Below are positions 10,244 through 40,055 of a stretch of DNA of 64,000 bases, one piece after another. The notes below the pieces were generated by a model. That model saw only the letters and a list, made by a program, of their open reading frames with translations. It did not search any database and was not told where the DNA came from. Each line of letters opens with the position of its first letter. The stretch's first letter is position 1. The stretch is from a bacterium. GTDB taxonomy: Bacteria; Arandabacterota; Arandabacteria; Arandabacterales; Arandabacteraceae. Where the stretch lies: contig JAOZOU010000009.1 of NCBI GenBank assembly GCA_029933125.1, positions 10,194 through 74,193 of the forward strand, in the 5' to 3' direction. A program made the position numbers and the translations under genes.

Positions 10244-10383
10244 GGGGTCGGAGCTAAAAATCGGCAAATCCCCCCAATTGGGGTCGGAGCTAAAAATCTG
10301 CATTCCAGCTTCTTTGGCACGGTCTGTGCAATTGCAAGTTAGGTGCCAGCCACGCCTTCGTGCACGTTTTTAGCTCCGACCCC
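10244..10383. repeat. repeat element locus 1: two direct copies of GGGGTCGGAGCTAAAAA core plus one inverted copy
   Basis: Core at 10244-10260 and 10280-10297 (direct), inverted copy 10365-10383; same core recurs at 43543-43732 and 53976-54066. Confidence 0.8.
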
Positions 10384-12121: not shown

Positions 12122-15100
12122 TCAGCGCATAAGAACCACCTTAGCAGTCGCCGACTGCCTGCCAGATGAGATTCTTACAAAATAGATACCAGCCGAGACG
12201 GCTCTCTCATTCCTTGACATACCGCTCCAGACCAAGGAGTGCATACCAGGTGATAGATGCCCTGCCTCGCTCTCCCACACCAGCCTACCTGCAACGTCAT
12301 AAACAGAGACCCGTACATCACCAAAGGTCGGAATTGTAAAAGATATCTGGAAATTCTCGTGGCTCGGGTTGGGTACAATTTTGGCGATGCCAAAGGCGAG
12401 GTGCTGGCCCCCACCTTGAGAAACACCCGCTATGTCAACATCTCCCTCCCACCGCCGTGCATATATCTCAGGATTACCATCCCTCTCATCCCGCCACACA
12501 ACGGCTATCTTGCCTAAGGCATCGGCAGCCACAGAAGGCAAAGCACAAGAGCCGCTCTCGGATGACAGCCTCGCCTCCCTTGACCAAATCGAAGTGTACG
12601 ACTTGTAGTAGATTGCCTCAGCCTCGTCATAGGTGTCCTCCCAGACCAAATGAAAGCGGCCCCTTCCATCACCACAGATATTGGGCGTCGTGCCAGTACC
12701 AAAAATTTCACCCAGGTCAGTCCACGACCCGCCTTCGTAAAGCATCCCCCGTATGGATGTATCACTCCCATCTTGCTCCTCCCACACCACCATTACCCTG
12801 CCACCGTCGTCGCAGCCAACCGATGGACGCGTCGAGAGACCCGGAGTCGCTACCAGCCTAGTAGAACTGCTCCACACCGAACCATCCCAGACCTTGTAGT
12901 AAATCTCACTATTGCCATCACGTGTATCTTCCCAGACCACGTAGACATTGCCAAGGCTGTCAGCTGCCCCAGCCGGATAGCGTGACACTGCCCCATCGCT
13001 GGTGAGCCTTTCTTCAGTCCACCCTAAACCATCCCATCTAACGCAGTATATCTCCCAGTTGCCATCACGACTGTCCTGGAAGAATATGAATGGCTCATCA
13101 CCCGCACTCACTGCCAACGAAGGATAGTCTGACACACCACTATTGCTGGTCAGTCTTCGATTTGCCTCCCAGATTAAGCCATCATAGTGCTTATAGTATA
13201 TCTCCCAGTTGCCATCACGACTGTCCTTCCAGCACAAGTGGAGCTCGTCACCCACCCCACCACAAATTGAAGGGAGCTGGGATGAAGCCGCATCATAAGT
13301 CAGCCGCGTCTCCGGTAGCCAGCTCACTCCATTCCACTTGCGGTAGTAAATCTCATAATTGCCATCACGATTGTCATACCAGACAACATGCACGTGACCA
13401 CTTGCCTCCCTTACAACACACTTACTGTTGTTCCACGAAGTTGTCGATGAGTAAGTATCGAAGCTTACGCGCTCTTCTTCACCCCAAGGTGTGTCAATGA
13501 TGAGAATGGCGTCAGCGAGGAACGCCTCCTGCAGGTCAGAATCGGAATTCTTAAGCCAGACCTGCCAGTAGCCCGGCTCTGCCCCGCAGAGATCAAAATC
13601 ACATTTGATGTAAGAGTCCGAAAGCCTTGTCACATTCTGTGCAAAAATCGGTTCCTCACCCACCCGCTCGAGCCAGACTGAGGGATTGCCAGCAAAACCG
13701 GTCCCTGTTAGAACGGCATTTACAGGGAAGACGTTGCCAGCTTCCGTTGGGGAAAACCTCGCTATAGCTGCACGTGTCTCACTAGCTGACCAATGCTTAT
13801 AGTATATCTCACTGTTGCCGCCGCCTTGATCATGGCACCAGACGACGTGCACATTCCCGACCGCATCAGTATCCAGGCGACCGGCTTCATCGCGGGTCGA
13901 ATTATATGTCAACCGCTCATCCGGCCACCATCTCACGCCGTCGTACCGCTTGTAATATATCTCATAGTTACCATCACGGCCATCTTGCCACACCACATGC
14001 ACATTACCACTTCCATCAGTCGCTACTGACGGAGCCTCAGAACTGCCTGAAGCATTCGTCAGTCGCTCATCTGGCCCCCAACTCACACCGTCATACCGCT
14101 TGTAATAAATCTCATAGTTACCATCACGGCCATCTTGCCACACCACATGCACATTACCACTTCCATCAGTCGCTACTGATGGATGCCAGGAGTCGCCTGA
14201 AGCATCAGTCAAACGCTCATCTGCTCCCCAACTCACACCATCATAAATTTTATGGTATATCTCCCAGTTACCGTCACGATAATCTTGCCACACAACATGG
14301 ATGTTCCCACTAGTGTCCACGGTCACCTCAGGCATTCGAGATTCGCCTGAAGCAACAGTCAATCGCTCATCCGGCCCCCAACTTGCACCATCATAAACTT
14401 TGTGGTATATCTCCCAGTTACCATCACGGCTCTCTTCCCATACAACGTGCTGATTGCCATCGCTATCCACGGCAACCGCAGCCCACTCAGAATTGCCAGG
14501 ATCGTTCGTCAACCGCTCATCCGGCCCCCAACTTACACCATCATAAACTTTGTGGTATATCTCCCAGTTGCCGTCGCGATAATCCTTCCAGAAAACGTGT
14601 AAGTTTCCGCCGAGGTCTCTTAGTAGCCGTGGATGGAACGAGCTCCCCGAAGCATTAGTTAAGCGTTCATCTGGCCCCCAGGTCACGCCATCATAGCGCT
14701 TATAGTATATCTCTCCATTCCCATCTCGCTCATCCCACCACACAACATGGAGACAGACCCCATCGACGAGTACCCGAGGAGATTGGGAACTGTCATTAGC
14801 ATAGGTAAGCTGCTCTTCAGGTAGCCACTCCCCAGCTGGCATAACATAGAAACCGAAGGGGAGCGTGTCTGGCTGTCCATCTGGATTCTTGACAATAACA
14901 TCCCAGTAGCCAGGGGCAGCGTTCTCGAGATCTGCGGTACAGGTTAGCCTGTCAGAACTCTCAACGCGGATGTTATGACACACGATCCGGGGTTCACCAG
15001 GCTTTTCAAGCCAGACAGAATCAGGAAAGAAAAAGCCAGAACCCGATAGATTTGTGATGCGCACTAATTCATGGCTGTAGCCTTCATCGGGTTCAATCGA

Positions 15101-16279
15101 GTTAATCTGCGGCTTCTCAAGTGTGCCGTTATACCATTCCTTCCAGTATAGCTCCCAGCCGCCATCACGGTTGTCATACCACGCAACATGCACGTTCCCA
15201 CTTTCATCCGTCACTACTGATGGATACCAGGAGTCGCCCGAAGCAACAGTCAAACGCTCATCCGGTCCCCAACTCGCCCCATCATACCGCTTATAATAAA
15301 TCTCATAGTTACCATCACGATTGTCATACCACACCACATGCACGTTACCGCCGGTGTCCGTTCCTACAGAAGGGCTATATGAGTCTCCTGAGGCATTTGT
15401 CAACCGCTCATCTGGTCCCCAGCTCATACCATCATACCGCTTGTAGTATATCTCATAGTTGCCATCACGATTGTCATGCCACACAACATGCACATTACCA
15501 CTTCCATCAGTCGCCACTGATGGATACCGAGAGTAGCCCGAAGCAACTGTCAATCGCTCATCAGAACCCCAACTCATACCATCATACCGCTTGTAATAAA
15601 TCTCATAGTCGCCATCACGATTGTCATGCCACACAACATGCACATTACCACTTCCATCAGTCGCTACTGATGGATACCGAGAGTAGCCCGAAGCAACTGT
15701 CAATCGCTCATCAGAACCCCAACTCACACCATCATACCGCTTATAGTATATCTCTGAGTCGCCATCCCGATGATCCCACCACACCACATGTACATTCCCG
15801 CTCATATCGACTGCGACCGAGGGATCCTGGGAGAGCCCAGCTGAGTTCGTCAACCGCTCATCTGCCCCCCAACTAACACCGTCATATCGCTTATAGTAAA
15901 TCTCCCAGTCGCCATCACGATAGTCCTCCCACACGATATGAACATTACCACTTACGTCCGCAGCCATCCACGCACCCCTAGACTGTCCACCTGCATTCGT
16001 CAAGCGTTCAACAGGGCTCCAACCCGTCCCATCGTAACGCTTGTAGTAAATCTCATCGCTGCCATCGCGAGTGTCCTCCCACACCACATGCACGTTACCA
16101 AACAAGTCCGTGGTCACACACCTACCCATTTCAGCCGAAACCTGGGAAGTGGGTGGATCAGTCAGACGCCAGTCAAAGAACCAGCCAGCAGCTGCCCGAC
16201 TTGCAAAGCACAGACCCAGTGCTATCAAGATCGCAAAAGACCAACCGAACGCTTCGCTTGTGGGTCTATCACGACGCAT
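12122..16279 (-). CDS. giant secreted repeat protein (about 28 x ~50-aa propeller-like repeats, two Ig-like inserts) with T9SS/FlgD-like C-terminal sorting domain
   Basis: Signal peptide MRRDRPTSEAFGWSFAILIALGLCFASRAAAG; repeat unit GNVHVVWxDxRDGNxEIYYKRYDGxSWGxDERLT; C-terminal 85 aa match the T9SS CTD pattern (VPNPSHENFQISF...VYDVAGRLV...GIYFVRI). Start 16279 chosen for signal peptide and SD spacing. Confidence 0.8.
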   Translation of the reverse strand: MRRDRPTSEAFGWSFAILIALGLCFASRAAAGWFFDWRLTDPPTSQVSAEMGRCVTTDLFGNVHVVWEDTRDGSDEIYYKRYDGTGWSPVERLTNAGGQSRGAWMAADVSGNVHIVWEDYRDGDWEIYYKRYDGVSWGADERLTNSAGLSQDPSVAVDMSGNVHVVWWDHRDGDSEIYYKRYDGVSWGSDERLTVASGYSRYPSVATDGSGNVHVVWHDNRDGDYEIYYKRYDGMSWGSDERLTVASGYSRYPSVATDGSGNVHVVWHDNRDGNYEIYYKRYDGMSWGPDERLTNASGDSYSPSVGTDTGGNVHVVWYDNRDGNYEIYYKRYDGASWGPDERLTVASGDSWYPSVVTDESGNVHVAWYDNRDGGWELYWKEWYNGTLEKPQINSIEPDEGYSHELVRITNLSGSGFFFPDSVWLEKPGEPRIVCHNIRVESSDRLTCTADLENAAPGYWDVIVKNPDGQPDTLPFGFYVMPAGEWLPEEQLTYANDSSQSPRVLVDGVCLHVVWWDERDGNGEIYYKRYDGVTWGPDERLTNASGSSFHPRLLRDLGGNLHVFWKDYRDGNWEIYHKVYDGVSWGPDERLTNDPGNSEWAAVAVDSDGNQHVVWEESRDGNWEIYHKVYDGASWGPDERLTVASGESRMPEVTVDTSGNIHVVWQDYRDGNWEIYHKIYDGVSWGADERLTDASGDSWHPSVATDGSGNVHVVWQDGRDGNYEIYYKRYDGVSWGPDERLTNASGSSEAPSVATDGSGNVHVVWQDGRDGNYEIYYKRYDGVRWWPDERLTYNSTRDEAGRLDTDAVGNVHVVWCHDQGGGNSEIYYKHWSASETRAAIARFSPTEAGNVFPVNAVLTGTGFAGNPSVWLERVGEEPIFAQNVTRLSDSYIKCDFDLCGAEPGYWQVWLKNSDSDLQEAFLADAILIIDTPWGEEERVSFDTYSSTTSWNNSKCVVREASGHVHVVWYDNRDGNYEIYYRKWNGVSWLPETRLTYDAASSQLPSICGGVGDELHLCWKDSRDGNWEIYYKHYDGLIWEANRRLTSNSGVSDYPSLAVSAGDEPFIFFQDSRDGNWEIYCVRWDGLGWTEERLTSDGAVSRYPAGAADSLGNVYVVWEDTRDGNSEIYYKVWDGSVWSSSTRLVATPGLSTRPSVGCDDGGRVMVVWEEQDGSDTSIRGMLYEGGSWTDLGEIFGTGTTPNICGDGRGRFHLVWEDTYDEAEAIYYKSYTSIWSREARLSSESGSCALPSVAADALGKIAVVWRDERDGNPEIYARRWEGDVDIAGVSQGGGQHLAFGIAKIVPNPSHENFQISFTIPTFGDVRVSVYDVAGRLVWESEAGHLSPGMHSLVWSGMSRNERAVSAGIYFVRISSGRQSATAKVVLMR

Positions 16280-16690
16280 AGCCATTCCCCCTTTTGAAAG
16301 CCTTTGAAGCATTCTACTCAAAAACATAGCGGCCAACCCGCAGCCACGAACAAAAACCCGGAGAGACGCTCACAATGTCACAGCAGCCCAGCCTGCGCCA
16401 ACATTGGAACCAATTAGCCATTATAGCACACAAGATGCGCTATTTCAACACCTTCTCGTACTTTTGCGGGGAATGGGTGGGGAGAACCCGCTTTCGATGA
16501 AACTGTTTTACATCCTCCACTTCGTTTGATAAAATGGGCGGCCGGCAAGAGAATCTTAACCAAAGGCTGCTGATTGTTCTGCGGGTCTGTCCGAGAGTGC
16601 AGGAAGGGCTAGGGATAGCAGCTACCCAAATCCCTTCCTCACGGTTGATGGGAAATATCGCTTCTGCCTTTCAATTGGGGGTGATTTTCC

Positions 16691-19153
16691 ATGGCGCGCC
16701 TTGACTGTCCCCGGTTGGTGCTGCCACTTGCGGTTCTTATTTTCACATTGGTGTCCCCTCCAACGCCTGTGCTGGGTGATTGGCTCTTTAGCACGAGACA
16801 GGATTTTGCGGTGGGTAGCAGACCTTCACAAGCTGCCCTCCATGACTTCAATAATGATTTCATACTCGACGCTGTCGTCGCCAACAGTGAGAGTGACAAC
16901 GTATCCATCCTCATTGGAAGAGGTGATGGGACATTTACCAGAGCGGAGGACGTAGACGTGGGGGATTACCCTGCCTCCATTTTGGCAACCGATGTTGACC
17001 TTGATCAGGATTGCGACCTTGTCGTAGCCAACACGTGGAGTAATACCATCTCGGTCCTCCTTGGTCATGGCGACGGAACATTCACCCCATCAGCGGAGAT
17101 TCTTGTTGGTGGAGGACCTTGTTTCGTCATCGGTGGCGACTTTAACTGCGACTGGATCCCTGACTTTGCTGTTGCCAACATGTACAGTGATGATATCTCC
17201 GTCGTGTTAGGCAATGGGGATGGAACATTTGATGCCCCGATACGCTTTCCTGTTGGCGGGTACCCGAACTCAATGGTTTCGGGCATGCTGAATGCAGACG
17301 GGTTTTCCGACATCGCTGTAACATGCTATTACGACAACAAAGTCTCAATCCTCTTCGGAAACGGTGATGGCACATTCACAAAGGCAGCCGACCATCCTGT
17401 TGACCACCCAAACGAAGTCTCAACTGGAGACTTTGATTCGGACGGCGATCTTGATCTTGTAGTGGTCAGAGTGTCTTCGACAAACCAATCGGTCCTCGTC
17501 TTCCTAAATGACGGCAATGGAACATTTCAGCCACCGGTTGCATATGAGGCTTACAACTACGGGATCTCAGTTGCTGTATCAGATGTTAATCTTGACGGAC
17601 ATCAGGACTTGGCAGTCGGTGATTTCAACGAGTCATTCTACATTCTCCTGGGAAACGGGGATGGCACTTTCCAGTCGTCGATTTACCACGATGCTGGGAA
17701 CTCCGTCGTCTGCATCCGAGTGGGAGACCTGGACAGAGACGGGCTACCGGATATCCTCGCTGTCAATAGGTATGAGGATACGGTCTCAAGCATCATAGGA
17801 AACGGAGACGGCACGTTCAAAGTCGCACCGTGGTACATGTGTGATTCCGGACTCTGCTCCGTGGCACTAGGCTATCTCAACGCCGATTCATTTCTCGACA
17901 TCGTTACTGGTAATGCTGACGCCCGCAATGTTTCAGTGCTCATTGCAAACGGTGATGCCACCTTTATGCCTGCTGTCAGCTACTTGATTGGGCTCGGTCT
18001 GAGCTGGGTAGTCATCGACGATTTTGGCGGCGACGCAGTTATGGATCTGGCTGTCTCCAGTGATATGCGCTATGTCGCTGTACTTATGGGAAACGGTGAT
18101 GGCACCTTCCAGGATCCAGTGACCTACTGGGTAAAGGGAGGTGCTGCGCATCTCGCCTCCGGCGATGTGGATGGCGACGGCGATGCAGATCTAGCTGTCG
18201 CAATCAAAGACAGTGGCGAGGTAGCGCTCCTACTTAACAACGGTGATGGCACCTTCGCTCCGGCAGTTGGCTACGCGGCTGATGGTGGCACCAATTGTGT
18301 CTGCCTCGATGACTTTGATTGTGACGGTGATCTAGATATCGCTACGGCCAATTGCTATGGGGATAATGTCTCTATCCTGCTGGGCAATGGGGACGGGACC
18401 TTCGCTGCAGCCGTGAACTACCCTGCATCCTTTGGTCCTTGCAGCGTGGTCTCAAACTATCTCGATGGAGATTCTCTTCCAGACCTTGCGGTCGTAAACG
18501 AATATAGCGACAATGTCTCAATACTACTCGGCAACGGTGACGGGACGTTTGACCTGGCCCGAAACTACCCTGTAGCCAACTCTCCTCTCTCACTTGCTAC
18601 AGGAGACTTCAATCGTGACTGCGTACCAGATCTTCTGGTCGTGCATCAGTTCCACTACTTTGTCTCTGTCCTTCTCGGAAACAGAGACGGTACTCTCAGG
18701 GAGCCAGTACTGTATGGCGCTCATATTTTCCCGCGGGCTGCAGCAGTCGGTGACCTAAACGCCGATGGGTCGGATGATGCTGTTGTTGCCAATCAGGGCT
18801 GCCTCAGCGTTTCGGTCCTTCTGGGGGAAATTTGCGCTGGTGTACCTATCGATGGAGACAGGAAACAAGCAGACTCAATTTGCCAGCTGAGGGTCGCGCC
18901 AAATCCATGCACTGGCAGTGCCGCGATTTGGTTCGACATTCCGTCAGAGCAATCTCTAAGAAGTGTCGCTGTCTATGATGTTTCAGGTGCTCTGGTCCGG
19001 CAATGGGTGTTGGAAGCGACGATAAGTAATGGAAACTGTGTTATCTGGGACTGCAGAGACAATTACGGAAGGCGTGTCGCACCGGGCGTTTACTTCGCAA
19101 GTATCCAAAGCGAAGGCGTGTTGGCCACACGCAAGCTCATAGTACTTCGCTAG
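16691..19153 (+). CDS. FG-GAP/VCBS repeat protein with T9SS/FlgD-like C-terminal sorting domain
   Basis: 820 aa; signal peptide; about 13 repeats with D-x-N-x-D-G-x-x-D and GNGDGTF motifs; C-terminal APNPCTGSAAIWFDIP...VYDVSGALV...GVYFASI sorting domain. Confidence 0.8.
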   Translation: MARLDCPRLVLPLAVLIFTLVSPPTPVLGDWLFSTRQDFAVGSRPSQAALHDFNNDFILDAVVANSESDNVSILIGRGDGTFTRAEDVDVGDYPASILATDVDLDQDCDLVVANTWSNTISVLLGHGDGTFTPSAEILVGGGPCFVIGGDFNCDWIPDFAVANMYSDDISVVLGNGDGTFDAPIRFPVGGYPNSMVSGMLNADGFSDIAVTCYYDNKVSILFGNGDGTFTKAADHPVDHPNEVSTGDFDSDGDLDLVVVRVSSTNQSVLVFLNDGNGTFQPPVAYEAYNYGISVAVSDVNLDGHQDLAVGDFNESFYILLGNGDGTFQSSIYHDAGNSVVCIRVGDLDRDGLPDILAVNRYEDTVSSIIGNGDGTFKVAPWYMCDSGLCSVALGYLNADSFLDIVTGNADARNVSVLIANGDATFMPAVSYLIGLGLSWVVIDDFGGDAVMDLAVSSDMRYVAVLMGNGDGTFQDPVTYWVKGGAAHLASGDVDGDGDADLAVAIKDSGEVALLLNNGDGTFAPAVGYAADGGTNCVCLDDFDCDGDLDIATANCYGDNVSILLGNGDGTFAAAVNYPASFGPCSVVSNYLDGDSLPDLAVVNEYSDNVSILLGNGDGTFDLARNYPVANSPLSLATGDFNRDCVPDLLVVHQFHYFVSVLLGNRDGTLREPVLYGAHIFPRAAAVGDLNADGSDDAVVANQGCLSVSVLLGEICAGVPIDGDRKQADSICQLRVAPNPCTGSAAIWFDIPSEQSLRSVAVYDVSGALVRQWVLEATISNGNCVIWDCRDNYGRRVAPGVYFASIQSEGVLATRKLIVLR

Positions 19154-19404: not shown

Positions 19405-20646
19405 CTAGTCCGCCGGGTTCACGAGGCGCCCCATGAAGAGGATGGTGCCGGTTGTGTTCTCCTTTATAAGGAAAATGAAAGGATGATCGGCTCGAAATGT
19501 CTTGGCTGGCGTAGGTGCCATCGCGAGCGCCATGGTAACCCCTGTTGCCGCAGCTGCCTCTGTCCCACGCTCATTCACATCGACATATGCTTTGTGCACA
19601 ACAGCTGAGATGAAAAGATCACGCTTGCCTGTCATACCTGAGAAATCCGCTCTTGTTGGCTCGAATGCATCCTTCATGCCAAGTTCTTCAAGAGCTCCAT
19701 CAACCCGAAACTTAGTCTCGAGCTTAAAACGCGGAAGGCTTATGTCCACCCGCTCAGGCGCAAGACGCCCAAGCCAGGCGGAAAGGGAATCAGGGGCAAG
19801 CCCCGCCTCGAGCCCTTTGAGCCCCTCAACCTTCCTTGGAAGCAGAATCACCATTGAAAGATCTCCACCCTTGTAGGGGAGCTCAAGTGCCTGAAAGTCA
19901 TCTCTCTCAAAATAGTGAAAGTGTCCTTCCTGATGCATCATGGGAATGGTGACCGTCGTTGTGTCATCTACATGGAAGGGCTCATCCGAGGTGCGCTTCT
20001 CCTTGAAAGGATGCTCCCAGTTGCCCAGAAAATAGATGGCGTTGGTAAGCACAAGCCTTACGTCGGGGGTAAGAAGCCCCCTGCCTATGAGCTCCTGTAT
20101 CTTGCCCTCAGTCTTCTCAGACACCCACTCATTTATGCGCTCCCTTGCACCAGCGGCATCATTGGCAAAATCAACCTGAAAAAGGCCTGCCCCATAGTAT
20201 TTTTTGGTTAAACCTATGAACTCAGCCTCAAACTCATAGCCCTCCTGTGCCCAAAGTGCATTCGCCACACTGAGCTTGAAGTTGCCTTTCCTACCAAGGG
20301 CATTGAGTGAATCTGTAAGCTCCCCAAATGCCTTGTGGATACCCTCACCACCTACCCCACCAAGCCCACCAAAATGCAATGCCCGAGCCATCTCCTCAGC
20401 AGTCTTACCCCGCGCTCCTGCATATGTCATCGCAAGCGCACTTGAGATGCTGTATGGGGAAAAGAATAGATTTCCTTCCCCAAGTTGCTGGTAAAGATCA
20501 AGCGCAAAAGCATTGTTTCTTGCCGCAAGTGTGTCCATCGTAACCTCTTGTGTTGGCTTTGCCTGGTCGCTTCCACAGCTAGATGCTCCCATCAGCGACA
20601 TTCCGATAAGCATTACCGCTATGAATCGCCAATCTCGCAGTCCCAT
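19405..20646 (-). CDS. serpin (serine protease inhibitor) with signal peptide
   Basis: Serpin hinge and reactive-centre-loop signature GTEAAAATGVTMALAMAP...HPFIFLI...ILFMGRLVNP plus N-terminal FSPYSISSALAMTYAGARG; ATG 20646 preceded by AGGAGG; track start 20790 likely too long. Confidence 0.85.
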   Translation of the reverse strand: MGLRDWRFIAVMLIGMSLMGASSCGSDQAKPTQEVTMDTLAARNNAFALDLYQQLGEGNLFFSPYSISSALAMTYAGARGKTAEEMARALHFGGLGGVGGEGIHKAFGELTDSLNALGRKGNFKLSVANALWAQEGYEFEAEFIGLTKKYYGAGLFQVDFANDAAGARERINEWVSEKTEGKIQELIGRGLLTPDVRLVLTNAIYFLGNWEHPFKEKRTSDEPFHVDDTTTVTIPMMHQEGHFHYFERDDFQALELPYKGGDLSMVILLPRKVEGLKGLEAGLAPDSLSAWLGRLAPERVDISLPRFKLETKFRVDGALEELGMKDAFEPTRADFSGMTGKRDLFISAVVHKAYVDVNERGTEAAAATGVTMALAMAPTPAKTFRADHPFIFLIKENTTGTILFMGRLVNPAD

Positions 20647-20865
20647 CCTTCTCCTCCTTCCTATGTACCCAACCCCCATATTATGATAACCACTCTCCAA
20701 GGTCAAAACCAAACCTTCGGGGGAGATTCCCTCGAAGACCACATACCAGACGCGTGAAATGCATCGCTCGAGGGTATGCTGAGATCTCATGTGTGGTTCC
20801 TTCAGCCCAGATGGAACCTTCTACGCCAATTTGAGAATTTTAGAGTGGAGAGAAGGAGGGTGAGA

Positions 20866-22065
20866 ATGAAACACAAGAATCCTGATCGCTATACCAAAAT
20901 TGCATTCTGCCTGACAGTCACTCTTGTTGCAGGGCTCGTCGGGGCTTTGAGTTTTCTCGGTGACCATGCTGTCGCCTATGCACTTGAGAATTCGAAAGCC
21001 TCATTTGGTACCAGCTACACTACTACCTGCCTTTTTGAAGGCTTCGAAGATGGTTGCCGCCTCAACCCCCCAATCACCACTGCCCGAGATATCAATCTCC
21101 TTGGCACATCCCATAGTCACATTCGTTCACACGAGCTGGTTGGGTTGGTGTCTTCCTCTTCATATGCGGCAGGCTCAGAAGGCTTTGTCCCCCAGCTGGA
21201 ATCGGGTTCCACCGCTTCCTCTGCTGCTCAACTAAGGCTAGCCTCTGCCGAACAATCCTCAATTTCGCCTGCGAATCTGCGTGCCGCCAAAGCCACCTAC
21301 ATCGTGTGGCCAACTCACCTGGATTTTGGGACCATAAGCACTTACAGCTACGCCGATAGGACATTCATGATAAAGAACAAGGGATCGACGAAACTCAGCG
21401 GTACAGTTCAGGCATCGCTACCATTTGTGGTTATAGAAGATAATCACTTCGATCTGGATCCAGGGCAGTGGAAGCATTTCACAATCAGGTTTCTCCCTAT
21501 CCTGCCTGGGAGTTCCACCTGCATGGTGACGCTTGGAGATAGCGTAGATACTAAAGTAATCTGCACCGGCAAGGGGAAACCTCGACCGTTCTCTGGCATA
21601 CTCTACCTCGAGTTCTTAGCATCCCTTCTCGCTGCTCACGATGGGGCTCTTATCTTCTCCAGTAATGCTTTTGTGCAGGCTGATTCTTGCAAAATAGAGG
21701 AAAGGCTTGCCAGATACGCAAAGGCTTGCGACGCCGCCAAGTGGATCTATGACGCCAGATCCATGTATAGAGATGATCATCATACACCGACTACTCCCAC
21801 ATGGCACAGCGACTTCCCAACATGGCACAACGACTTCCCAACATGGGGTGGACATTCAACCCATCAGAGTGGCTCAAATACCTCTCACATCAGCATTGGA
21901 GAGATGAACTGGACACATCATGTGCCCTCAGCGATAGTTGCGCCACTCCCTGTCGCAACCCCACCTTCCTGGCATGCCACGATACCAACCGCTGGTATTT
22001 CCTCCTCGATGTCCCATACATCGGATAGACGTCACCATATATCGCACCCACGTGTCCACCACTAG
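20866..22065 (+). CDS. secreted protein with Ig-like (ASH / choice-of-anchor-D-like) domain and His/Trp-rich C-terminal tail
   Basis: Signal anchor MKHKNPDRYTKIAFCLTVTLVAGLVGALSFLG; central motif YIVWPTHLDFGTISTYSYADRTFMIKNKGSTKLSG; C-terminal low-complexity tail with about 15 His and repeated TWH/PTWH. ATG 20866 preceded by AGGAGGG. Confidence 0.45.
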   Translation: MKHKNPDRYTKIAFCLTVTLVAGLVGALSFLGDHAVAYALENSKASFGTSYTTTCLFEGFEDGCRLNPPITTARDINLLGTSHSHIRSHELVGLVSSSSYAAGSEGFVPQLESGSTASSAAQLRLASAEQSSISPANLRAAKATYIVWPTHLDFGTISTYSYADRTFMIKNKGSTKLSGTVQASLPFVVIEDNHFDLDPGQWKHFTIRFLPILPGSSTCMVTLGDSVDTKVICTGKGKPRPFSGILYLEFLASLLAAHDGALIFSSNAFVQADSCKIEERLARYAKACDAAKWIYDARSMYRDDHHTPTTPTWHSDFPTWHNDFPTWGGHSTHQSGSNTSHISIGEMNWTHHVPSAIVAPLPVATPPSWHATIPTAGISSSMSHTSDRRHHISHPRVHH

Positions 22066-22154: not shown

Positions 22155-23360
22155 ATGAGGAAAAGATCGCTTCTTTCGACAATTCTCTTGATCACGATAG
22201 GTGGCTCTGGGCTATTGTTAGCCCCCCTTGCCCGAGCTGCCGCTGGCTGGACTCCTGCAATCCGGCTGACTAATAGCGATGGCTCCCTAACGCTTTCGGG
22301 TCCCCCCGGACTTAAGCAGATAGCTGCAGGCCCTGACGGGAGGATACATGTAGTTTGGGCTGATAACCGAGATGGGATGTATCACATCTATTACAAGTGC
22401 TTTGATGGAAAAGCTTGGAGCAAAGACGAATGCATAAGCCAGGGCTATGGCTTAGACCCCAGTATCTCGCTCCTTCCTCACGGTCGGATACTGGTAGCGT
22501 GGTACTGGTTCGGCTACGACACCTTTGCTCGGATCTTCGACGGGTCAAGATGGCAGAACGAGACCAAGCTCAGCGATTGCACACCGATCAATAGCACCTG
22601 GCCTTCTACGGTGACCGACGCTGCAGGACGTGCCCACGCATTCTGGCCAGTCTCAAGCTTCTGTGAGGCGTTCCTAATGCATCGTGTCTATGATGGCCAA
22701 AGGTGGCTTCCCTGTGACACGATACCAGGCACCACAGGTAACCCCATGCTGACGGCTGCTGCGTGTGATAGCAAGGGAAATCTTCATCTCGTGTGGACGG
22801 ATGGAAGAGATGGCAACTTTGAAATCTACTACACGACGTATGATGGCTCGCGGTGGGGTGCTTTTCAAAGACTCACGAGTGACCCAGCAGCATCAGAGCT
22901 TCCGGATGTTGCAATCTCCTCAAAGGATGTCATCTATGTGGTTTGGCAGGACTCTCGTACAGGAGTCCCTGAGGTCTATCTTAAGACATTCAACGGCAAA
23001 TGGTCTCCTGATCAGAGACTTTCAGCAGACGACGGCAGACTATCGGGCAATCCCAAGATAGCTATAGATTCAATGGACAGGGTACACATCGTTTGGGGAG
23101 AGCAAAGGCATGAGAAGATCAAGTTCCATGACATCTATTACCGCAGGTCGCGTCCCAGGGGTAAGCTATGGTCGCCCCCTGTAAGACTGACAAGTGATGC
23201 AGCAATCCCGAAATACTACTCCCTCTGTGTTGACTCTGCTGGTAACGCCTATGTGGTTTGGATGGATTTCCGCAATTTCAGGTGGGATATCTATTTCAAA
23301 ACTCAGTGTAAATCCAACGACCCTGCCTTCTGGACAAGGGGGCTCACCCAGGCCAATTAA
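22155..23360 (+). CDS. secreted propeller-repeat protein, paralogous to the repeats of the 12122-16279 protein, no sorting domain
   Basis: 401 aa; signal peptide; repeats RIHVVWADNRDGMYHIYYKCFDGKAWS, LHLVWTDGRDGNFEIYYTTYDGSRWG, IYVVWQDSRTGVPEVYLKTFNGKWS share the giant protein's repeat motif. Confidence 0.7.
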   Translation: MRKRSLLSTILLITIGGSGLLLAPLARAAAGWTPAIRLTNSDGSLTLSGPPGLKQIAAGPDGRIHVVWADNRDGMYHIYYKCFDGKAWSKDECISQGYGLDPSISLLPHGRILVAWYWFGYDTFARIFDGSRWQNETKLSDCTPINSTWPSTVTDAAGRAHAFWPVSSFCEAFLMHRVYDGQRWLPCDTIPGTTGNPMLTAAACDSKGNLHLVWTDGRDGNFEIYYTTYDGSRWGAFQRLTSDPAASELPDVAISSKDVIYVVWQDSRTGVPEVYLKTFNGKWSPDQRLSADDGRLSGNPKIAIDSMDRVHIVWGEQRHEKIKFHDIYYRRSRPRGKLWSPPVRLTSDAAIPKYYSLCVDSAGNAYVVWMDFRNFRWDIYFKTQCKSNDPAFWTRGLTQAN

Positions 23361-23387: not shown

Positions 23388-26300
23388 CTACCTCCAGTCA
23401 CCAGAGGAAACAAAAGCAGCCCATCGTACCGGATGATCTATCATTCCATGCGAGCGCAGTTCTTTGAGCACTTTGAGCTCAACCGCGTTAAGGGTGAATG
23501 CAATATTCTCTGGGGGCGTGCTGTAGATGGCACTACAAACTTCGGCAGCAAGTCTGTCAGACACTGGCCACATTGCACCGATTATTGTGCGCGCCCCAGC
23601 CAGCCGAAAGGCACGCACGGGGCCATAAACGCCTTCGGCATCTTCAAGCTCGCCAGTTGCGGTTTCGCACCCCGAAAGCACCACGAGATCGGTTCCTCTG
23701 AGATCAAGGGCAAGGATCTCCTCAGAGGTAAGTGTGCCATCATCAATCATTGGGTTCTCAAAGCCTCTACCATGGAGATTTGCTCGAGCCAGAAAAAGCC
23801 CTGATAAGACCAGGGGATTGAGACTATCAGGGTTGATACTTACCCTATCTGCTGAAGGGTAGATCTTCCCCGGCGAGCAAGATGCCAGGTGATAACCATG
23901 GGTTGCAAGGTGAAGCACGCGCTTCCCAGGAGCATCAGCTTTTACCCTTTCCTCAGTTGCGTCTTTGCCGACATAGATATACGCGGGCTCACCTGTGACC
24001 TCGCGCCACCTATGAGCTACAGCTTCTACCTCACGGCGGCTCTCAGGGAGAGGTGGAACAACAATGTTGAACCGTTCCTTGCAGGGAATCGATGTCTGAC
24101 CATGCTCAAGTAAGTCAAGCTCAGGCTTGAGGGCACCCCTCTCAGGTAAGGCATCGTAGTCGGGGGCACCAATTGCCAGAAGCCCCTTACCCCGCTTAGG
24201 ATTTTTCCCAAGCGCAAGGAGGTCGCGAGCAGCTGCGATGTAGTGTACGGGATAATGTTCGATAAGATACTTGCCATCACCTGCTATCAAGCCTGCAAAG
24301 GAAATGCGCGAAATCTCAGCATCAGAGCAAATGATCACAAGATCCGAACCCTCGAGGTGACCTTCAATCGGCTCAACAAGGATCTCATAGAGCCTTCTTC
24401 CAAGCCTTGTGTAGTATTCCATATCCTCAAGTGTGGGACCTGACCTGGAATCAGCTAACTTCCTCATGTGGTGGCAATAAAGGCGGACAGCAAAGTCGAT
24501 GTCAGCAGCATCGCCCAGCTGTACAATACGCACCTCGGAATCACTGGTTAGCACGAGCGCAAGGTATCTGAAAAAGTAGCCGTTAGGCTCAACCCAGTAC
24601 TGATACTTGAAATACTCAACAACTGTAGTTCTCATAGGAAATCTTCTCAGGGCACTGAGCACCTTGGCTACACTGGTGTCAAGTACCTGCGCTGCGTCGG
24701 CATGATCAGCTATCAAACTGGCAAGTCTTCGCTCAAGGCGCTCCTTTCGCTTTCTGAGATTTTTGAGCATTGTCTCTAAGTCTTTGCTGCTGGGGATCTC
24801 AGAAGTGTAGAGCACCGAGATTTGCTGGTGAATGAGGCTAAGGGAATCCACAACCGCAGTTGCATAATCTGTCGTTCCACGTAAGGCGTGTCTTTGAGCA
24901 AGGAGATCAGTGACACCGCCTTTGGACTGCAATACGGCATCTGCAACCTCGAGCGTGGCATGCTCTTCCCTTTCGGGGAGATCGAAGTAAGTAGTAAGTA
25001 GCCTATCCACACAGGCGAGCTGAACCTCTCGATACTTAAGAGCCTCTCTTTCCGGCATTAGCAGAATCTGATCCGCTACGGTTTGCCATCCGAGCTCGAG
25101 TGTCTCCAGGGCAGCGTCCCAGGCCGCCCGGACGTCACCTCTCATCCTATGAAATCTGCTGAGATCCAGGAGATTCATGGTTGCATCTGGACCAAGCGAA
25201 CCGAGTGCTTTCTGCATAGCAATTGCCTTCTCATACATTGGCATTGCTTCACCATAGCGCCGCTCATCTCGATAGCAATTTGCGAGGGTCATCAAAATGG
25301 AAACAATTGCCGGGCTCGCCGTCTCAGCCTCCGTCTCGCAGGAAGCTATTGCTGAAGCACACAGGCTTTCAGCCCTGCTATAGTCATGGATGTAGCGGTA
25401 GACAGTTGCAAGGGCTGCGATTGCCCGTAGGAGAGCGGGATGCTGAGGACTAAAGGGCTTATTTAAAATTGCAATAGCACGTTCCAGGTTGTCTATAGCC
25501 ATTCTAATGTACTTTGTGTGGTTATTGCTACGCAGCTCGTAGTTCAGGGATCCGAGCTCGGCAAGTACCATACCAATGCCTGGATGATTCGGTCCAAGAC
25601 CTACCTCACCTCTCCCGAGAGCATCCTTGAGCACAACATGTGCCTGATCAAACCGCTGGGATGCAACGAGCACTCTTGCAAAACCGAGCATTGCCTCAAG
25701 ACGGTGGGTATTCATAGCAGGTGACGTGCGATCAAAAATGGCAAGAGCCTCTTCATAAAGCCTTTCAGCCTCGACAAGGTTGGCTTGACAATATCTGAGG
25801 CGTGCCATATTGGTGATTGTTGAGGCAACGAAAGGGTGCCAGTAACCAAGGCTGATGCCGAGCAATCTTCTGGCCTCAAGCAAGTGGTATTCTGCCGAAA
25901 GATAATCCAGTTTGTAAGTATCTATCAACCCTTGCAGGTTCAGGGTATGCGCTAATGTAACACTGTCGGCCCTGTCCGATATCTCAAGAAGGAAGCGTGA
26001 CTCATCAAGCCAATCTTGAGCCCTGGTATAGTAACCCTGGGCAACCGCGAGATGAGCAAGAGCGAGATCGATGTGTGCTTCCCAGCAAGGGTCGGGGTAG
26101 TTCTGAGAAAGATAGCGAGCCTGAGATAGATAGCCTTGCGCTTCAGCATAGTGTCCCAGCTCAGTTCCTATCTCACCAAGGTAGGTAAGAAGTGGCAGGG
26201 CCTGCTCGCGCAATTCCGAAGGGGGAGTTCGGGTGATTAATCGCTCCAGCTTCCCGTACAGGCTTGAAAGTTCTTCGTGACCACCATACTGGAGATAGAA

Positions 26301-26594
26301 CGCAGCCAAGACTGCAATCTGTGAAGGGAGGGATTGAAATTCCCTTCCCTCACCAATCGACCTCAATGTCCTTGCTAGCTTGGCCTGGGCATCACGGTAA
26401 CTTTCATACTTTAAGAGTCGAGTCGATCCGCATTGGGAATCTACAACAACAATCGGCAGGTAGCCCCCACCAACACTTGACGGAGACCCTCCAGCAAGCC
26501 TAATTAACCCAAGAGTGCACACTGCTGCGAGGAGGACCTGATTGACTTTCGATGAATCCATTCCTCCCTGCCTTTGCTTTTCGAGAAAACGCAT
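23388..26594 (-). CDS. TPR-repeat protein with C-terminal CHAT (caspase-like) peptidase domain, predicted secreted
   Basis: CHAT catalytic dyad context VLHLATHGYH (His) and LVVLSGCETATGE (Cys) at C-terminus; multiple TPR-like helical repeats centrally; signal-peptide-like MRFLEKQRQGGMDSSKVNQVLLAAVCTLGL. The first 140-150 aa of the track ORF would overlap the divergent sigma-factor region and are rejected; alternative start ATG 26561. Confidence 0.75.
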   Translation of the reverse strand: MRFLEKQRQGGMDSSKVNQVLLAAVCTLGLIRLAGGSPSSVGGGYLPIVVVDSQCGSTRLLKYESYRDAQAKLARTLRSIGEGREFQSLPSQIAVLAAFYLQYGGHEELSSLYGKLERLITRTPPSELREQALPLLTYLGEIGTELGHYAEAQGYLSQARYLSQNYPDPCWEAHIDLALAHLAVAQGYYTRAQDWLDESRFLLEISDRADSVTLAHTLNLQGLIDTYKLDYLSAEYHLLEARRLLGISLGYWHPFVASTITNMARLRYCQANLVEAERLYEEALAIFDRTSPAMNTHRLEAMLGFARVLVASQRFDQAHVVLKDALGRGEVGLGPNHPGIGMVLAELGSLNYELRSNNHTKYIRMAIDNLERAIAILNKPFSPQHPALLRAIAALATVYRYIHDYSRAESLCASAIASCETEAETASPAIVSILMTLANCYRDERRYGEAMPMYEKAIAMQKALGSLGPDATMNLLDLSRFHRMRGDVRAAWDAALETLELGWQTVADQILLMPEREALKYREVQLACVDRLLTTYFDLPEREEHATLEVADAVLQSKGGVTDLLAQRHALRGTTDYATAVVDSLSLIHQQISVLYTSEIPSSKDLETMLKNLRKRKERLERRLASLIADHADAAQVLDTSVAKVLSALRRFPMRTTVVEYFKYQYWVEPNGYFFRYLALVLTSDSEVRIVQLGDAADIDFAVRLYCHHMRKLADSRSGPTLEDMEYYTRLGRRLYEILVEPIEGHLEGSDLVIICSDAEISRISFAGLIAGDGKYLIEHYPVHYIAAARDLLALGKNPKRGKGLLAIGAPDYDALPERGALKPELDLLEHGQTSIPCKERFNIVVPPLPESRREVEAVAHRWREVTGEPAYIYVGKDATEERVKADAPGKRVLHLATHGYHLASCSPGKIYPSADRVSINPDSLNPLVLSGLFLARANLHGRGFENPMIDDGTLTSEEILALDLRGTDLVVLSGCETATGELEDAEGVYGPVRAFRLAGARTIIGAMWPVSDRLAAEVCSAIYSTPPENIAFTLNAVELKVLKELRSHGMIDHPVRWAAFVSSGDWR

Positions 26595-26834
26595 ACCATG
26601 CACTATTTGGGATGTCAAGCCTGCCAACTCGGATGTGCCCGTCCCAACGCCATAAACAATATTGCACTCCATGCGATTAAGCTTGAAGATATGGCGTTCG
26701 TGAGGTAACATTTGCAGTAGCACACGGTTCCTGCTCGGATCTGCTACGAAAGAGAGCTGGCGGAGGGCAGACTCATCGACTTCTCGCTCGAAGATAAGGA
26801 CACCCGGGAAACCGTCAGGCAATGGATTCAGCCT

Positions 26835-27317
26835 GTGGTAAGAAGTCCAAGGTGGTATCAGCGCATCAAGCACGAAGAGCAGGATATTTACAATGAAGTT
26901 ATGTTGAGATTCCTGATTGCATGTCAGAAAGGCCGCGTCGATACTGCAAGAGATCCCAGGCCTTATGTTCAGAAAATTGCCTTTCACGTCTGCGTTGACT
27001 GGATCAGGCGTAACCATCGAGAGGTCCCTTTCGACGACATCACCGAAGAGATTAGCAGGAAGCTTTTCAGGCGTGAGCCCAGTATTCTCGAAAAGCTCAC
27101 ACGTGATGAAACGGTTGAGGTTCTAGTGGAGCTGATTGGAACCTTGCCTGAGAAATGCCGAAATATATTACGGATGACATTTTATGAAGAAAAATCAGAG
27201 AAGGCGATTGCAGATGCTCTTGGTGTACCCGTTGGAACCGTAAAATCTAGAAAGTCGAGATGCCTCGACAAGCTCAGGCATCTCTTGAAAGGAAAAGACA
27301 ATCAAGCTATGGATTAG
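26835..27317 (+). CDS. ECF-type RNA polymerase sigma factor (sigma-24 family), N-terminally short
   Basis: Region 2 (EQDIYNEVMLRFL...IAFHVCVDWIRRN) and region 4 (AIADALGVPVGTVKSRKSRCLDKLR) motifs; first canonical start is GTG 26835 after in-frame stop at 26718. Confidence 0.75.
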   Translation: MVRSPRWYQRIKHEEQDIYNEVMLRFLIACQKGRVDTARDPRPYVQKIAFHVCVDWIRRNHREVPFDDITEEISRKLFRREPSILEKLTRDETVEVLVELIGTLPEKCRNILRMTFYEEKSEKAIADALGVPVGTVKSRKSRCLDKLRHLLKGKDNQAMD

Positions 27318-35920: not shown

Positions 35921-37061
35921 TGCCTTCCTCCAGCTCACGCGACCAACGGCGATAATCTCTAAGATAGAAATCCATTCTCCCACCCCTGCCCATCGCTAAA
36001 TCCTGTATGCCACAGCGCGCATCAGTGCACCTGAGACAAGCACCATCACATGATGCCGCTGGCTCAAACTTCTCCCCTCTCTTCACATAAACCGGTACAT
36101 CAATTCCTTCACAGTTTACAGAGCTCATAAATTCCCTGTTCAACCCAACCGCGACACCATCGACGAGCTCGTATTCCATACAAAGAGCGAAAGTCACACC
36201 AAGCCTGTCACAAATGTTGCGCATCTTATCGAAGATGCGTTTGCGGTAGTCGATCCCTGCATGGAGATAACCATCTATACGCTCGACGTACAAGCGCTCG
36301 AGGTCGTAAACGAATCCTACACCAAAGCGCCGAAATTTTGCAAACACTTCCGTTGCGATCTTCATCGGAATGTCCATAACGCTTCCTATGATGTGCCTCG
36401 CTCCGCAATCAATGCCCCTTGTAATCATCGCCCGAAGTTCATCGTCTGAATCGGTAAGGAAGGGAATAACGGGATCAACTCTTAAGACGACAGGAATGCC
36501 ACTGGAAGCGCAAGCACTCATTGAGCTAAACAGCTCATCGAGAGTTGCTCCACGCGCCATGAGTCGCTTGCGAACCTCCTCCCTCGATGTAGAAACGGAG
36601 AATTGCCCGAAGGAGTGCTTCTGCTTCTTAAGCAATCCTATGACATCCCCCGGAACTTCACACTTGGTTATGAATTCTATTGGGATATTTCGCTCGATGA
36701 ACTCACGAATTACCTTCTCTGAAAGTTGGTAGCGCCTGTTCACCTCCTGAAATGGATCACAAACGGGGGAAAGATAACCGCATGATGCAACTCTGATGGA
36801 ATCGAGCTGATGGGCGACCACTTTGTCAAAATCTTTAAAGACTGTGACTATGCCTTTCTCATTGAAGAGTCTGAAATAGTGTGCTGGAAGAGCTCGTGCA
36901 TAGCAGAAGATGCAAGCCACGGAACAGCCATTGTAAGGATTTATGAGCATCCTCTCGCCCGTGCATTCACGCTTTCCCTTCCACCAGCCGTGGAGCTCCT
37001 TTTTTGAAGAGACGATTATGTGAGGATAGGGTTCTCTGATTACTTCCTGCGCTTCCACCAC
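35913..37061 (-). CDS. radical SAM protein, SplB/DNA-repair-photolyase-like (COG1533-type)
   Basis: 382 aa; CxxxCxxC radical SAM motif in NPYNGCSVACIFCYA, characteristic of spore-photoproduct-lyase-like family. Confidence 0.65.
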   Translation of the reverse strand: MVEAQEVIREPYPHIIVSSKKELHGWWKGKRECTGERMLINPYNGCSVACIFCYARALPAHYFRLFNEKGIVTVFKDFDKVVAHQLDSIRVASCGYLSPVCDPFQEVNRRYQLSEKVIREFIERNIPIEFITKCEVPGDVIGLLKKQKHSFGQFSVSTSREEVRKRLMARGATLDELFSSMSACASSGIPVVLRVDPVIPFLTDSDDELRAMITRGIDCGARHIIGSVMDIPMKIATEVFAKFRRFGVGFVYDLERLYVERIDGYLHAGIDYRKRIFDKMRNICDRLGVTFALCMEYELVDGVAVGLNREFMSSVNCEGIDVPVYVKRGEKFEPAASCDGACLRCTDARCGIQDLAMGRGGRMDFYLRDYRRWSRELEEGNG

Positions 37062-38611: not shown

Positions 38612-38621
38612 CCGATTCTTG

Positions 38622-40055
38622 TCAGCTTCCTTGAATGGTATGGCCCTGTCTAAGGAGCGGCTCAACAACTTCAGGAGATAGCCTGATCATGCGATAAATC
38701 TGGACTCGGTGCATACGCTGCTTCCTCGGATTGATCCACTCCCAAACTATTTCACCGTCCGGAGTAACCTCAAATGCACGGCCTCGATCGCCCTCACAGA
38801 TGAGGGTGTTGCCATTGGCGAGGCGCTGGGCAGAGCCTTTCTCATAGGAGTAGAAACTCTCAGGTGGATCCCCAACATACTGCCATACGATCTCATAGGT
38901 GACCGGATCAAGCTCGATGACTCTTGAATAGCCTCTAACTGGTCCATTGTCAAAGATGAGGATGTGCCCATTGGCTAGCATTGTCGGATGGTGTGGCCAC
39001 TGGAGCTCGCCTTCTCCCCAAACCCAAAGAATCTCACGTGTATCCTTATCAAGAATTGCAATTTGATTTACATTTCGAAAGCATATGAGAAGATTCCCTG
39101 GCTTGAATCTTCTATCCTTAGCCAGAGCATTCTCTGGAAGCACCGTGACCGTATTCATGTGAAAATAATCGTAGATGTTCTTACCACTGCGTTTATAGAC
39201 CTCGAGTTTGCCAGGGACCGTTGCCTTGAAGGAATCAATACCCCCACGTCCTGATAGACTATCAATCAGATTGTCAAGGAAGGATCGTGTATCGAAGGCT
39301 TGCTTTATCTCATCAAGATGGTCATATGTTGACCAGCGACCAATCTCCTTACCATCGAGGGTGAGGTGAAGAATAGCTGCAAATCTGACCTGAAGTCCTC
39401 GATAGTTCTTGATGTCGCGTACAATTGTGTAAATTGTGCTATCCGGAGCAAGTGATGCCTCATGATGGGCAATGGCATCGACCTTCCAGATAAGATTTGA
39501 ATTCCAATCGAGACGCTTGATGTCCCTCATTCTGCTTACAACAATGACATCGCCATTGGGTAGCATGAGCGCAGGTGCCCATACCCAGTGACGCTTACGC
39601 TTCTCAGGGTAGTACCACCTGTGAACCATTTTCCCATACATGTCCATAAGATAGACCTCTGGCGAGATGGCTGAGCAAAAAATCTGATAACCGCGCCATG
39701 AGCGGAGGCTGTCATAGACAGTAACTCCCGAAGGGCCGCTCACTTTCTGGGGAGTCATCGTTGTATAAGGGATTGAGCGAAGACGTTCGAGCTTTCGCTT
39801 CAGATTCTGATCATTGTTAGTCTCACGAGGTGTGTTGCGGGCTAGGGATAGGATAATCACAGCTGCCAGACCCGATGCAACTGCAAGTGAGCCTATGAGC
39901 AGTCGTCTTCTCATTCTGCCTGGAGCCTCTCCTTTCAGGCGAATCTCGCTGAGATTTTCACTGATAACTTCGACAACTTCATAGCCAACTTCATCAAGAA
40001 GTTTCTGGCGAACTTTACCAAAATCATACCATTTGGAGCTAGCTGGTTTAAACAT
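38622..40055 (-). CDS. arylsulfotransferase (ASST)-like beta-propeller protein with N-terminal membrane anchor
   Basis: 477 aa; TM anchor RRRLLIGSLAVASGLAAVIILSLA; His-containing motifs HHPTMLANGHILIFDNG and AQRLANGNTLICEG reminiscent of ASST family; call is tentative. Confidence 0.45.
   Translation of the reverse strand: MFKPASSKWYDFGKVRQKLLDEVGYEVVEVISENLSEIRLKGEAPGRMRRRLLIGSLAVASGLAAVIILSLARNTPRETNNDQNLKRKLERLRSIPYTTMTPQKVSGPSGVTVYDSLRSWRGYQIFCSAISPEVYLMDMYGKMVHRWYYPEKRKRHWVWAPALMLPNGDVIVVSRMRDIKRLDWNSNLIWKVDAIAHHEASLAPDSTIYTIVRDIKNYRGLQVRFAAILHLTLDGKEIGRWSTYDHLDEIKQAFDTRSFLDNLIDSLSGRGGIDSFKATVPGKLEVYKRSGKNIYDYFHMNTVTVLPENALAKDRRFKPGNLLICFRNVNQIAILDKDTREILWVWGEGELQWPHHPTMLANGHILIFDNGPVRGYSRVIELDPVTYEIVWQYVGDPPESFYSYEKGSAQRLANGNTLICEGDRGRAFEVTPDGEIVWEWINPRKQRMHRVQIYRMIRLSPEVVEPLLRQGHTIQGS

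Follow-up and report, generated by a model that had tools for sequence, protein, structure and literature searches.

Near-identical blade repeats in a bacterial triple-propeller gene: probable homogenisation at constant blade number

The stretch of DNA analysed here, referred to as the window, comprises 64,000 nucleotides (nt) of contig JAOZOU010000009.1 (assembly GCA_029933125.1, positions 10,194 to 74,193). On its minus strand is a gene in which units of 150 nt follow one another in tandem, and parts of adjacent units are nearly identical. The question raised by this locus is how the units came to be so similar. A first-pass annotation had suggested recent duplication or gene conversion and had pointed to a potential for variation in repeat number. 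The explanation favoured here, which is considered fairly probable, is that the repeats reflect homogenisation of the gene conversion type without a net change in the number of units. The nature of the unit itself is clear. The 150-nt repeat is neither a mobile element nor part of a CRISPR-like array or contingency tract, but the coding unit of a 50-residue beta-propeller blade.

The open reading frame (ORF) that contains the repeats is uninterrupted (Table 1). Its translation indicates a protein, secreted or displayed at the surface, that has three seven-bladed propellers (A, B, and C), two immunoglobulin (Ig)-like linkers, and a type IX secretion system (T9SS) sorting domain. The gene had been described as giant; at 1404 codons, it is large only. 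The blades occur in three groups of seven and share the consensus GNVHVVWxDxRDGNxEIYYKRYDGxSWGPDERLTxASGxSxxPSVATDxS. The blade repeat is recognized by TIGR04275 (131.1 bits, cut-off 85) in 12 stretches, by NF053835 (101.5 bits, cut-off 90), and by BNR_4 (PF15892; 69.1 bits, cut-off 27).

The periodicity of 150 nt was borne out by two programs. Tandem Repeats Finder (TRF) identified two arrays with this period (13908-14589 and 15160-16100; 76-81% matches). A repeat finder placed 12-16 copies in register at 150-nt spacing, with a step of 591 nt separating two groups. The interval 13941-15760 had been taken as one array. It is made up of most of array B, most of array A, and about 0.3 kb of sequence without repeats, and within this spacer (14822-15106) the identity at a lag of 150 nt falls to 15-30%. 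The units had also been called almost identical. This applies to two local tracts but not to the whole arrays, in which the DNA identity of adjacent units is 57-89% when they are compared in the register of the protein.

The first of these tracts is an exact repeat of 71 nt. The pair 13961-14029 and 14111-14179 had been reported as identical, and it is exact, with the tract slightly longer than first given (13959-14029 and 14109-14179). At lower stringency, this region extends to approximately 116 nt at 94% identity. The second tract is 116 nt in length, and its single mismatch splits it into exact runs of 61 nt and 54 nt. Around it, identity at a lag of 150 nt is approximately 96% across 15423-15604. 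About two mismatches had been counted between 15483-15600 and 15633-15750; there are five in 118 nt. Shared sequence is also found between the arrays, which are joined by exact tracts of 35-40 nt that sit 1.3-1.6 kb apart. In addition to the 40-nt tract listed in Table 1, a related tract of 35 nt is present (13995-14029 = 15636-15670).

The relatives of the protein show what the blades may have looked like before. The best full-length matches in a database of 5.8 billion proteins are five proteins of 1384-1421 aa (P0001 to P0005) that are 40-43% identical to it. Their sources are metagenome-assembled genomes (MAGs) or metagenomes, and for one of them the name Candidatus Eisenbacteria is given. 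They are treated here as orthologues on the basis of full-length colinear alignment. All five align from end to end with almost no insertions or deletions and possess the same 21 blades (7+7+7), both linkers, and the sorting domain. Since the five orthologues have the same 7+7+7 blades, the blade number found here is ancestral. The orthologue genes contain no comparable DNA repeats. TRF found none in the locus L022, and the longest exact direct repeats are of 25 nt or less. The three-propeller, T9SS-sorted architecture is met mainly in Candidatus Eisenbacteria-like MAGs. Searches of the protein database, the GTDB representative genomes, and the JGI metagenome contigs gave no relative above about 43% identity over the full length. 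When tblastn and blastn were run across all of the fetched loci, the best match over a short segment was 59% identical. A value of 71% given for L041 by the JGI metagenome search was not reproduced by tblastn.

Comparison with the orthologues indicates that most of the blades in propellers A and B have lost their individuality. Blades A1-A6 and B1-B6 are on average 67% identical to one another (maximum 92%), as opposed to 34-40% within each orthologue. For A1-B6, the best paralogous blade is 64-92% identical, whereas the orthologous blade is 28-58% identical. The median blade identity is 62% in propeller A and 60% in propeller B over seven blades, and 72% and 66% over the first six. Positional signal was measured as the diagonal excess after double-centring of the identity matrix, with a permutation P. 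Across the orthologues, blades at equivalent positions resemble one another, with an excess of 6.5-9.9 points (P<5e-5 each). In the protein studied here this signal is absent (0.43 points, P=0.22). The twelve homogenised blades are all closest to the A2/A3 type of the orthologues. A1-A6 are homogenised, and B1-B6 have moved towards the blade type that propeller A has. Blades A7 and B7 are divergent, and these two blades, the linker domains, and propeller C retain positional similarity to the orthologues. Outside of the homogenised blades, the protein is 41-45% identical to P0001, P0002, and P0003, which are 41-43% identical to one another. The lineage is therefore not an obvious outgroup. From these alignments, the ancestral state appears to be 21 distinct blades, twelve of which were overwritten here with their number and the domain borders unchanged.

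The long tracts exceed what would be expected from conserved repeats. A null simulation of 5000 runs covered all in-register comparisons, within and between arrays. Match probabilities were taken from site-specific conservation of the repeat and shifted to the overall identity of each comparison. Under this null, the family-wise longest exact run averaged 26.5 nt; its 95% and 99% quantiles were 35 nt and 42 nt, and the longest run in any simulation was 57 nt. Both observed runs, of 71 nt and 61 nt, are longer than those in any of the 5000 simulations. Inside the tracts, the synonymous positions are identical too. The units are also mosaic, in that the nearest neighbour differs between the thirds of a unit. 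The first third of A4 matches A5 at 49 of 50 nt, and its last third matches A3 at 49 of 50 nt. The last third of B4 is closest to A6 of the other propeller (44 of 50 nt). The pairwise homoplasy index (PHI) test for recombination was significant on the units (P<0.0005).

The age of the homogenisation can be judged in part from the synonymous sites. Between blades, the median synonymous divergence (dS) is 1.35 and the median nonsynonymous divergence (dN) is 0.24, and many pairs are saturated at synonymous sites. Pairwise dN/dS per blade is noisy, with 22 of the 66 pairs saturated, and is suited to qualitative use only. Codon sharing at identical residues is 1.41 times the expectation here, compared with 1.06-1.25 times in the orthologues. 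Since synonymous sites are saturated in many blade pairs, the homogenisation would be mostly old or patchy, and the long tracts would be its youngest events.

The differences that remain are not spread evenly. Within the young tracts they are mostly synonymous, and the tracts end at or near clusters of nonsynonymous differences in the loop at blade positions 40-43. Variable residues are concentrated at blade positions 9, 11, 16, 40, 42, and 43, and the residual variation is centred on two loops, at positions 9-16 and 36-43. From the strand topology of a four-stranded meander, both loops would lie on one face of the propeller, and this is probably the face that binds a ligand.

A history that could account for these observations is as follows. 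The 21-blade architecture is old and common to the distant orthologues, in which each blade has its own sequence. In the lineage of this gene, homologous recombination between misaligned or paralogous blade units may have repeatedly copied stretches in a non-reciprocal manner (gene conversion), among units of the same array as well as from one array to the other. Such copying would have erased the individuality of A1-A6 and B1-B6 and spared A7, B7, the Ig-like domains, and propeller C. The tracts of 71 nt and 116 nt would mark the most recent conversion events. The closed fold of seven blades was presumably selected, so that the number of blades would have remained constant. Of the two processes named in the first-pass annotation, conversion is supported by the excess of long tracts, the mosaic units with the PHI result, the tracts shared between arrays, and the lost positional signal. 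Recent net duplication is not, as the orthologues share the 7+7+7 blades with almost no insertions or deletions.

Several points weigh against homogenisation by conversion. The 40-nt tract between the arrays lies between the 95% and 99% quantiles of the null and is suggestive only. The star-like distances outside of the homogenised blades leave some room for this lineage having branched first, before the blades differentiated elsewhere. Mosaicism of the kind seen here, in a fixed register, can also stem from duplications in a shifted register, which could then account for some of the PHI signal. From one sequence, gene conversion is not fully separable from cycles of unequal crossing-over that end again at seven blades, the two having much the same footprint. 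Finally, the sequence is probably a metagenome assembly.

Of the other explanations, recent amplification comes closest to fitting the data, although it is considered unlikely. Here, one or a few blade units would have been duplicated by unequal crossing-over or slippage and would have replaced older blades, with deletions restoring seven blades per propeller. The literature reads such propellers in this way, under an amplification-and-differentiation model (PMC9218822), and highly repetitive propellers are common among relatives with a period of 51 aa. The stretch of about 96% identity around the 116-nt tract (15423-15604) is one unit or slightly more in length, and the blades at the edges of the arrays are the least homogenised, as unequal crossing-over predicts. 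However, amplification requires matched gains and losses in two propellers, each brought back to seven blades with flanks and borders unchanged. The 71-nt tract, even at its extent of about 116 nt at 94% identity, is below one unit, and separate tracts sit in separate phases of the unit. Exact tracts also bridge the two arrays across the spacer that encodes an Ig-like domain.

The tracts or the unit count could also be artefacts of short-read collapse, expansion, or a chimaera of strains. Such repeats are a known source of trouble for short-read assemblers, the source organism is probably uncultured, and the homologues all come from MAGs or metagenomes. The risk of collapse or expansion raised in the first-pass annotation is a fair caveat. 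The intact frame of 1404 codons and a blade count that matches the orthologues argue against it: the count and all of the domain borders agree with five independent orthologues without insertions or deletions. In addition, a typical read is longer than the exact tracts (71 nt or less) and than the 116-nt tract with its one mismatch, and the units in between can be told apart. An assembly artefact is very unlikely.

It can also be supposed that no recombination took place and that a selected peptide motif, together with codon bias, produced the likeness. Among the twelve homogenised blades, 49 of the 150 unit positions are invariant, and both the saturation at synonymous sites in many pairs and the modest overall codon sharing (1.41 times the expectation) would fit this. 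Against it, the null with site-specific conservation never exceeded a run of 57 nt, synonymous positions are identical within the tracts, and orthologues under the same fold constraint keep their blades at 34-40% identity. Selection on the peptide as the sole cause is refuted by the long exact tracts, and an origin without any recombination is scarcely credible.

The last alternative, a contingency locus or a target of a diversity-generating retroelement (DGR) that varies a surface protein, is almost certainly wrong: a secreted or surface product, variable residues in two loops on one face, and a fungal precedent for propeller repeats (PMC1805685, PMC2873952) would agree with it, but the mismatches between near-identical copies are a mixture of transitions and transversions, not adenine-specific and mostly synonymous, no reverse transcriptase was found among the scanned ORFs of the window, and blade number is fixed across the orthologues. 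DGR-type or other programmed mutagenesis was rejected on the lack of adenine-specific mismatches and of a reverse transcriptase among those ORFs.

Variation in repeat number is a separate matter. Direct repeats of this kind, exact over 71-116 nt and spaced by 150 nt, are sufficient for slippage or RecA-dependent recombination, as is known from work with tandem repeats in Escherichia coli. Each event would change the count by exactly one blade and keep the frame, and the copy-number variation proposed in the first-pass annotation is mechanistically reasonable. However, the constancy of blade number across deep divergence suggests that variants of this kind do not persist and are selected against.

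Repetitive propellers have been encountered before, and Chaudhuri and coworkers are said to have described highly repetitive beta-propellers in 2008. Such propellers are now well described and widespread, and they are read as products of recent amplification from a single blade (Pereira and Lupas, 2022; PMC9218822). Highly repetitive, recently amplified propellers were also described by Afanasieva et al. (2019; PMC6805158). The terms "gene conversion", "concerted", and "recombination" do not occur in PMC9218822. Pereira and Lupas require that, within a propeller, the pairwise identity of the blades have a median above about 60%. Propellers A (62%) and B (60%) reach this value, although they are borderline when the seventh blade is included. 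Like the known examples, they have blades that resemble one another more than they do the corresponding blades of homologues. Unlike the known examples, differentiated orthologues with the same blade number and borders exist. The uniform blades therefore arose in the context of two mature propellers, with exchange between the propellers. This mature context and the unchanged blade count point to conversion rather than a new amplification from one blade. Among the relatives, an adjacent-blade identity of 0.6-0.82 is common in the subfamily with a period of 51 residues. Within its own subfamily, with a period of 50 residues, the protein is extreme (0.79, against 0.57 for the next highest).

The classic case of concerted evolution in propeller repeats is found in fungi. 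The WD40 repeats of the HNWD genes (het-d/het-e/het-r) of Podospora anserina undergo concerted evolution (Paoletti et al., 2007, PMC1805685; Chevanne et al., 2010, PMC2873952). These blade-coding repeats are homogenised by recombination within and between arrays, as is probable for the repeats described here, and in both cases variability is found at a few positions of one face. The HNWD proteins are intracellular NLR-type receptors with WD40 repeats of 42 aa, for which repeat-number polymorphism and positive selection have been demonstrated. The protein described here is bacterial and secreted, belongs to another blade family, and has a blade number that is fixed across orthologues.

Homogenised propeller repeats are thus already known, and what is instructive in this gene is that differentiated orthologues fix the ancestral state. 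For annotation, the repeats can be regarded as ordinary coding repeats of a propeller protein and do not constitute a new kind of system. For assembly quality control, comparison with orthologues provides an independent check on the unit count. For the study of repeat evolution, the homogenisation of twelve blades at a constant blade number can be attributed to concerted evolution within a closed fold, which is of relevance to the current view of near-identical blades as a sign of recent amplification from one blade. It may be that highly repetitive propellers can form by conversion in place across two mature propellers and not by amplification of a single blade, and that near-uniform blades with variation on one face are adaptive, but this broader proposal is decidedly doubtful. 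If it is true, the benefit could be a multivalent, lectin-like surface, or a recombination-driven variation of a surface protein displayed through the T9SS, as in the fungal HNWD receptors.

Table 1. Coordinates of the triple-propeller gene, its predicted domains, and its near-identical tracts (positions in the window)
Feature	Position	Strand	Remarks
Whole ORF	12122-16336	-	1404 codons counted from the first TTG
Promoter-like site TTGAAA-17-TATAAT, extended -10 TG	16420-16448	-	Consensus scan, 11/12 matches; consensus match alone
Putative signal peptide or signal anchor MAMRRDRPTSEAFGWSFAILIALGLCFASRAAAG	16184-16285	-	Read off the translation
Propeller A, seven blades of 50 aa (150 nt)	15107-16183	-	Blade register, AlphaFold2, Foldseek, TIGR04275
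Ig-like domain 1 (IPT/TIG-like beta-sandwich)	14822-15106	-	Non-repeat spacer within the interval flagged at first; model residues ~359-448
Propeller B, seven blades	13751-14821	-	Blade register
Ig-like domain 2	13463-13750	-	Local alignment with Ig-like domain 1; aligned with orthologues
Propeller C, seven more divergent blades, still like orthologous blades (C1, C3 clearest)	12413-13462	-	
T9SS type A C-terminal sorting domain	12125-12379	-	TIGR04183, PF18962, FlgD_ig
Tract T1, 71 nt exact	13959-14029 = 14109-14179	-	Crosses the B6/B5 and B5/B4 unit borders
Tract T2, 116 nt, 1 mismatch	15461-15576 vs 15611-15726	-	Crosses the A5/A4 and A4/A3 unit borders
Inter-array tract, 40 nt exact	14145-14184 (propeller B) = 15636-15675 (propeller A)	-	
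B3/B2 tract, 34 nt exact	14386-14419 = 14536-14569	-	Alone not significant

The probable start of the protein is an ATG at 16285 that is preceded by GGGGGA, which would give a product of approximately 1387 aa. The promoter-like site in Table 1 is about 135 nt upstream of this start. With this putative start codon, the N-terminus has, by eye on the translation, a basic stretch followed by a hydrophobic stretch that leads to AAAG. At the other end, the sorting domain scores above the cut-offs of TIGR04183 (37.5 bits, cut-off 23), Por_Secre_tail (PF18962; 31.4 bits, cut-off 27, aa 1320-1401), and FlgD_ig (31.0 bits, cut-off 27), and is therefore assigned to type IX secretion. None of the T9SS machinery (PorK/L/M/N, SprA, PorU/V) was seen among the scanned ORFs of the window. 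The two linker domains are of about 95 residues each. Local alignment indicates that they are paralogous, yet they have not been homogenised with each other. Pfam finds a TIG domain in another homologue (P0007).

An AlphaFold2 model of aa 52-525 (pLDDT 86, pTM 0.81) contains seven repeats of four strands, followed by a beta-sandwich, and propeller A is predicted to close as a ring of seven four-stranded blades. In a Foldseek search against the PDB, sialidases, which are six-bladed, lead by E-value. The top TM-scores belong to 5mvh, 5mum, 4irt, 7esn, 5uam, and 7roo (0.52-0.61 on the query and up to 0.66 on the target, at 12-17% sequence identity). These six structures are seven-bladed propellers. 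The fold is thus held in common with GH145 (5mvh, 5mum, 5muk, 4irt), the PL42 rhamnose-glucuronate lyase (7esn), the PL25 ulvan lyase (5uam), and the CylK propeller (7roo). No catalytic residues could be mapped. The near-uniformity of the blades is more suggestive of a scaffold for multivalent binding than of one asymmetric active site. A phmmer search of the PDB sequences gave no detectable match, and neither the Asp-box S.D.G.[TS]W nor the looser form [ST].D.G..W occurs anywhere in the protein. Membership in the Asp-box (BNR/sialidase) family was ruled out on these two grounds. The blades resemble TolB-type PD40 repeats in the pattern RDG-x-x-E/D-I-Y ... R-L-T. However, the TolB model scores 62.5 bits, far under its cut-off of 343, and the protein is not a TolB orthologue. 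It also differs from the PDIAV-motif lipoproteins of NF053835, as it has no lipoprotein signal.

Other repeat proteins are encoded near the gene. Its divergent neighbour (16691-19153, plus strand) encodes 820 aa with nine FG-GAP_3 (VCBS/integrin-type) repeats and is another propeller-type repeat protein. The ORF at 22155-23360 (plus strand, 401 aa) gave four matches at 40-54% identity in a tblastn search with one blade and has a weak Pfam match to BNR_4; judged by these matches, its product is probably a single-propeller paralogue. In a search for a donor copy elsewhere in the window, this was the only ORF with the same blade type. It was ruled out as the source of the tracts, as its DNA is 72-74% identical over about 60 nt. 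An ORF of 251 aa runs antisense through array A (15121-15876, plus strand). In all likelihood it is not a gene but arises from the periodicity of the sequence, which is poor in stop codons.

Two features of the neighbourhood have counterparts beside the orthologues. A serpin gene (19405-20790, minus strand) is located near the triple-propeller gene, and a serpin gene also directly adjoins the orthologue P0001 (L022, 6447-7742). The occurrence of a serpin beside a triple-propeller gene on independent contigs suggests conserved linkage. Two PMT_2-type glycosyltransferase genes and an arylsulfotransferase-like gene are found at 37061-42027 (minus strand), and a similar pair flanks the orthologue P0004 on its own contig (L024, 147-1421 and 6438-8036).

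The window also contains large genes on the minus strand for a TPR-CHAT protein of 1209 aa (23388-27017) and a HAMP/PAS histidine kinase of 1607 aa (55127-59950), as well as an ORF of 1106 aa without a Pfam match (47671-50991). Scans of the window for Rfam families and for tRNA genes gave no matches. Two short tandem repeats are present. One has a period of 21 nt and 2.5 copies (21795-21846) and lies inside an ORF without Pfam matches (20776-22065). The other has a period of 17 nt and 2.1 copies (40217-40252) and lies just upstream of one of the PMT_2 genes (40276-42027). A motif of 17 nt, GGGGTCGGAGCTAAAAA, occurs ten times without mismatch, where no occurrence is expected. It is found at 10244-10383, 43543-43732, and 53978-54066 in intergenic arrays of two or three direct copies with a spacing of 36 nt. 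At the first two of these sites, one inverted copy is located approximately 85-100 nt beyond the array. By their arrangement, these arrays look like an interspersed element of the repetitive extragenic palindrome or bacterial interspersed mosaic element (REP/BIME) type, or of the miniature inverted-repeat transposable element (MITE) type.

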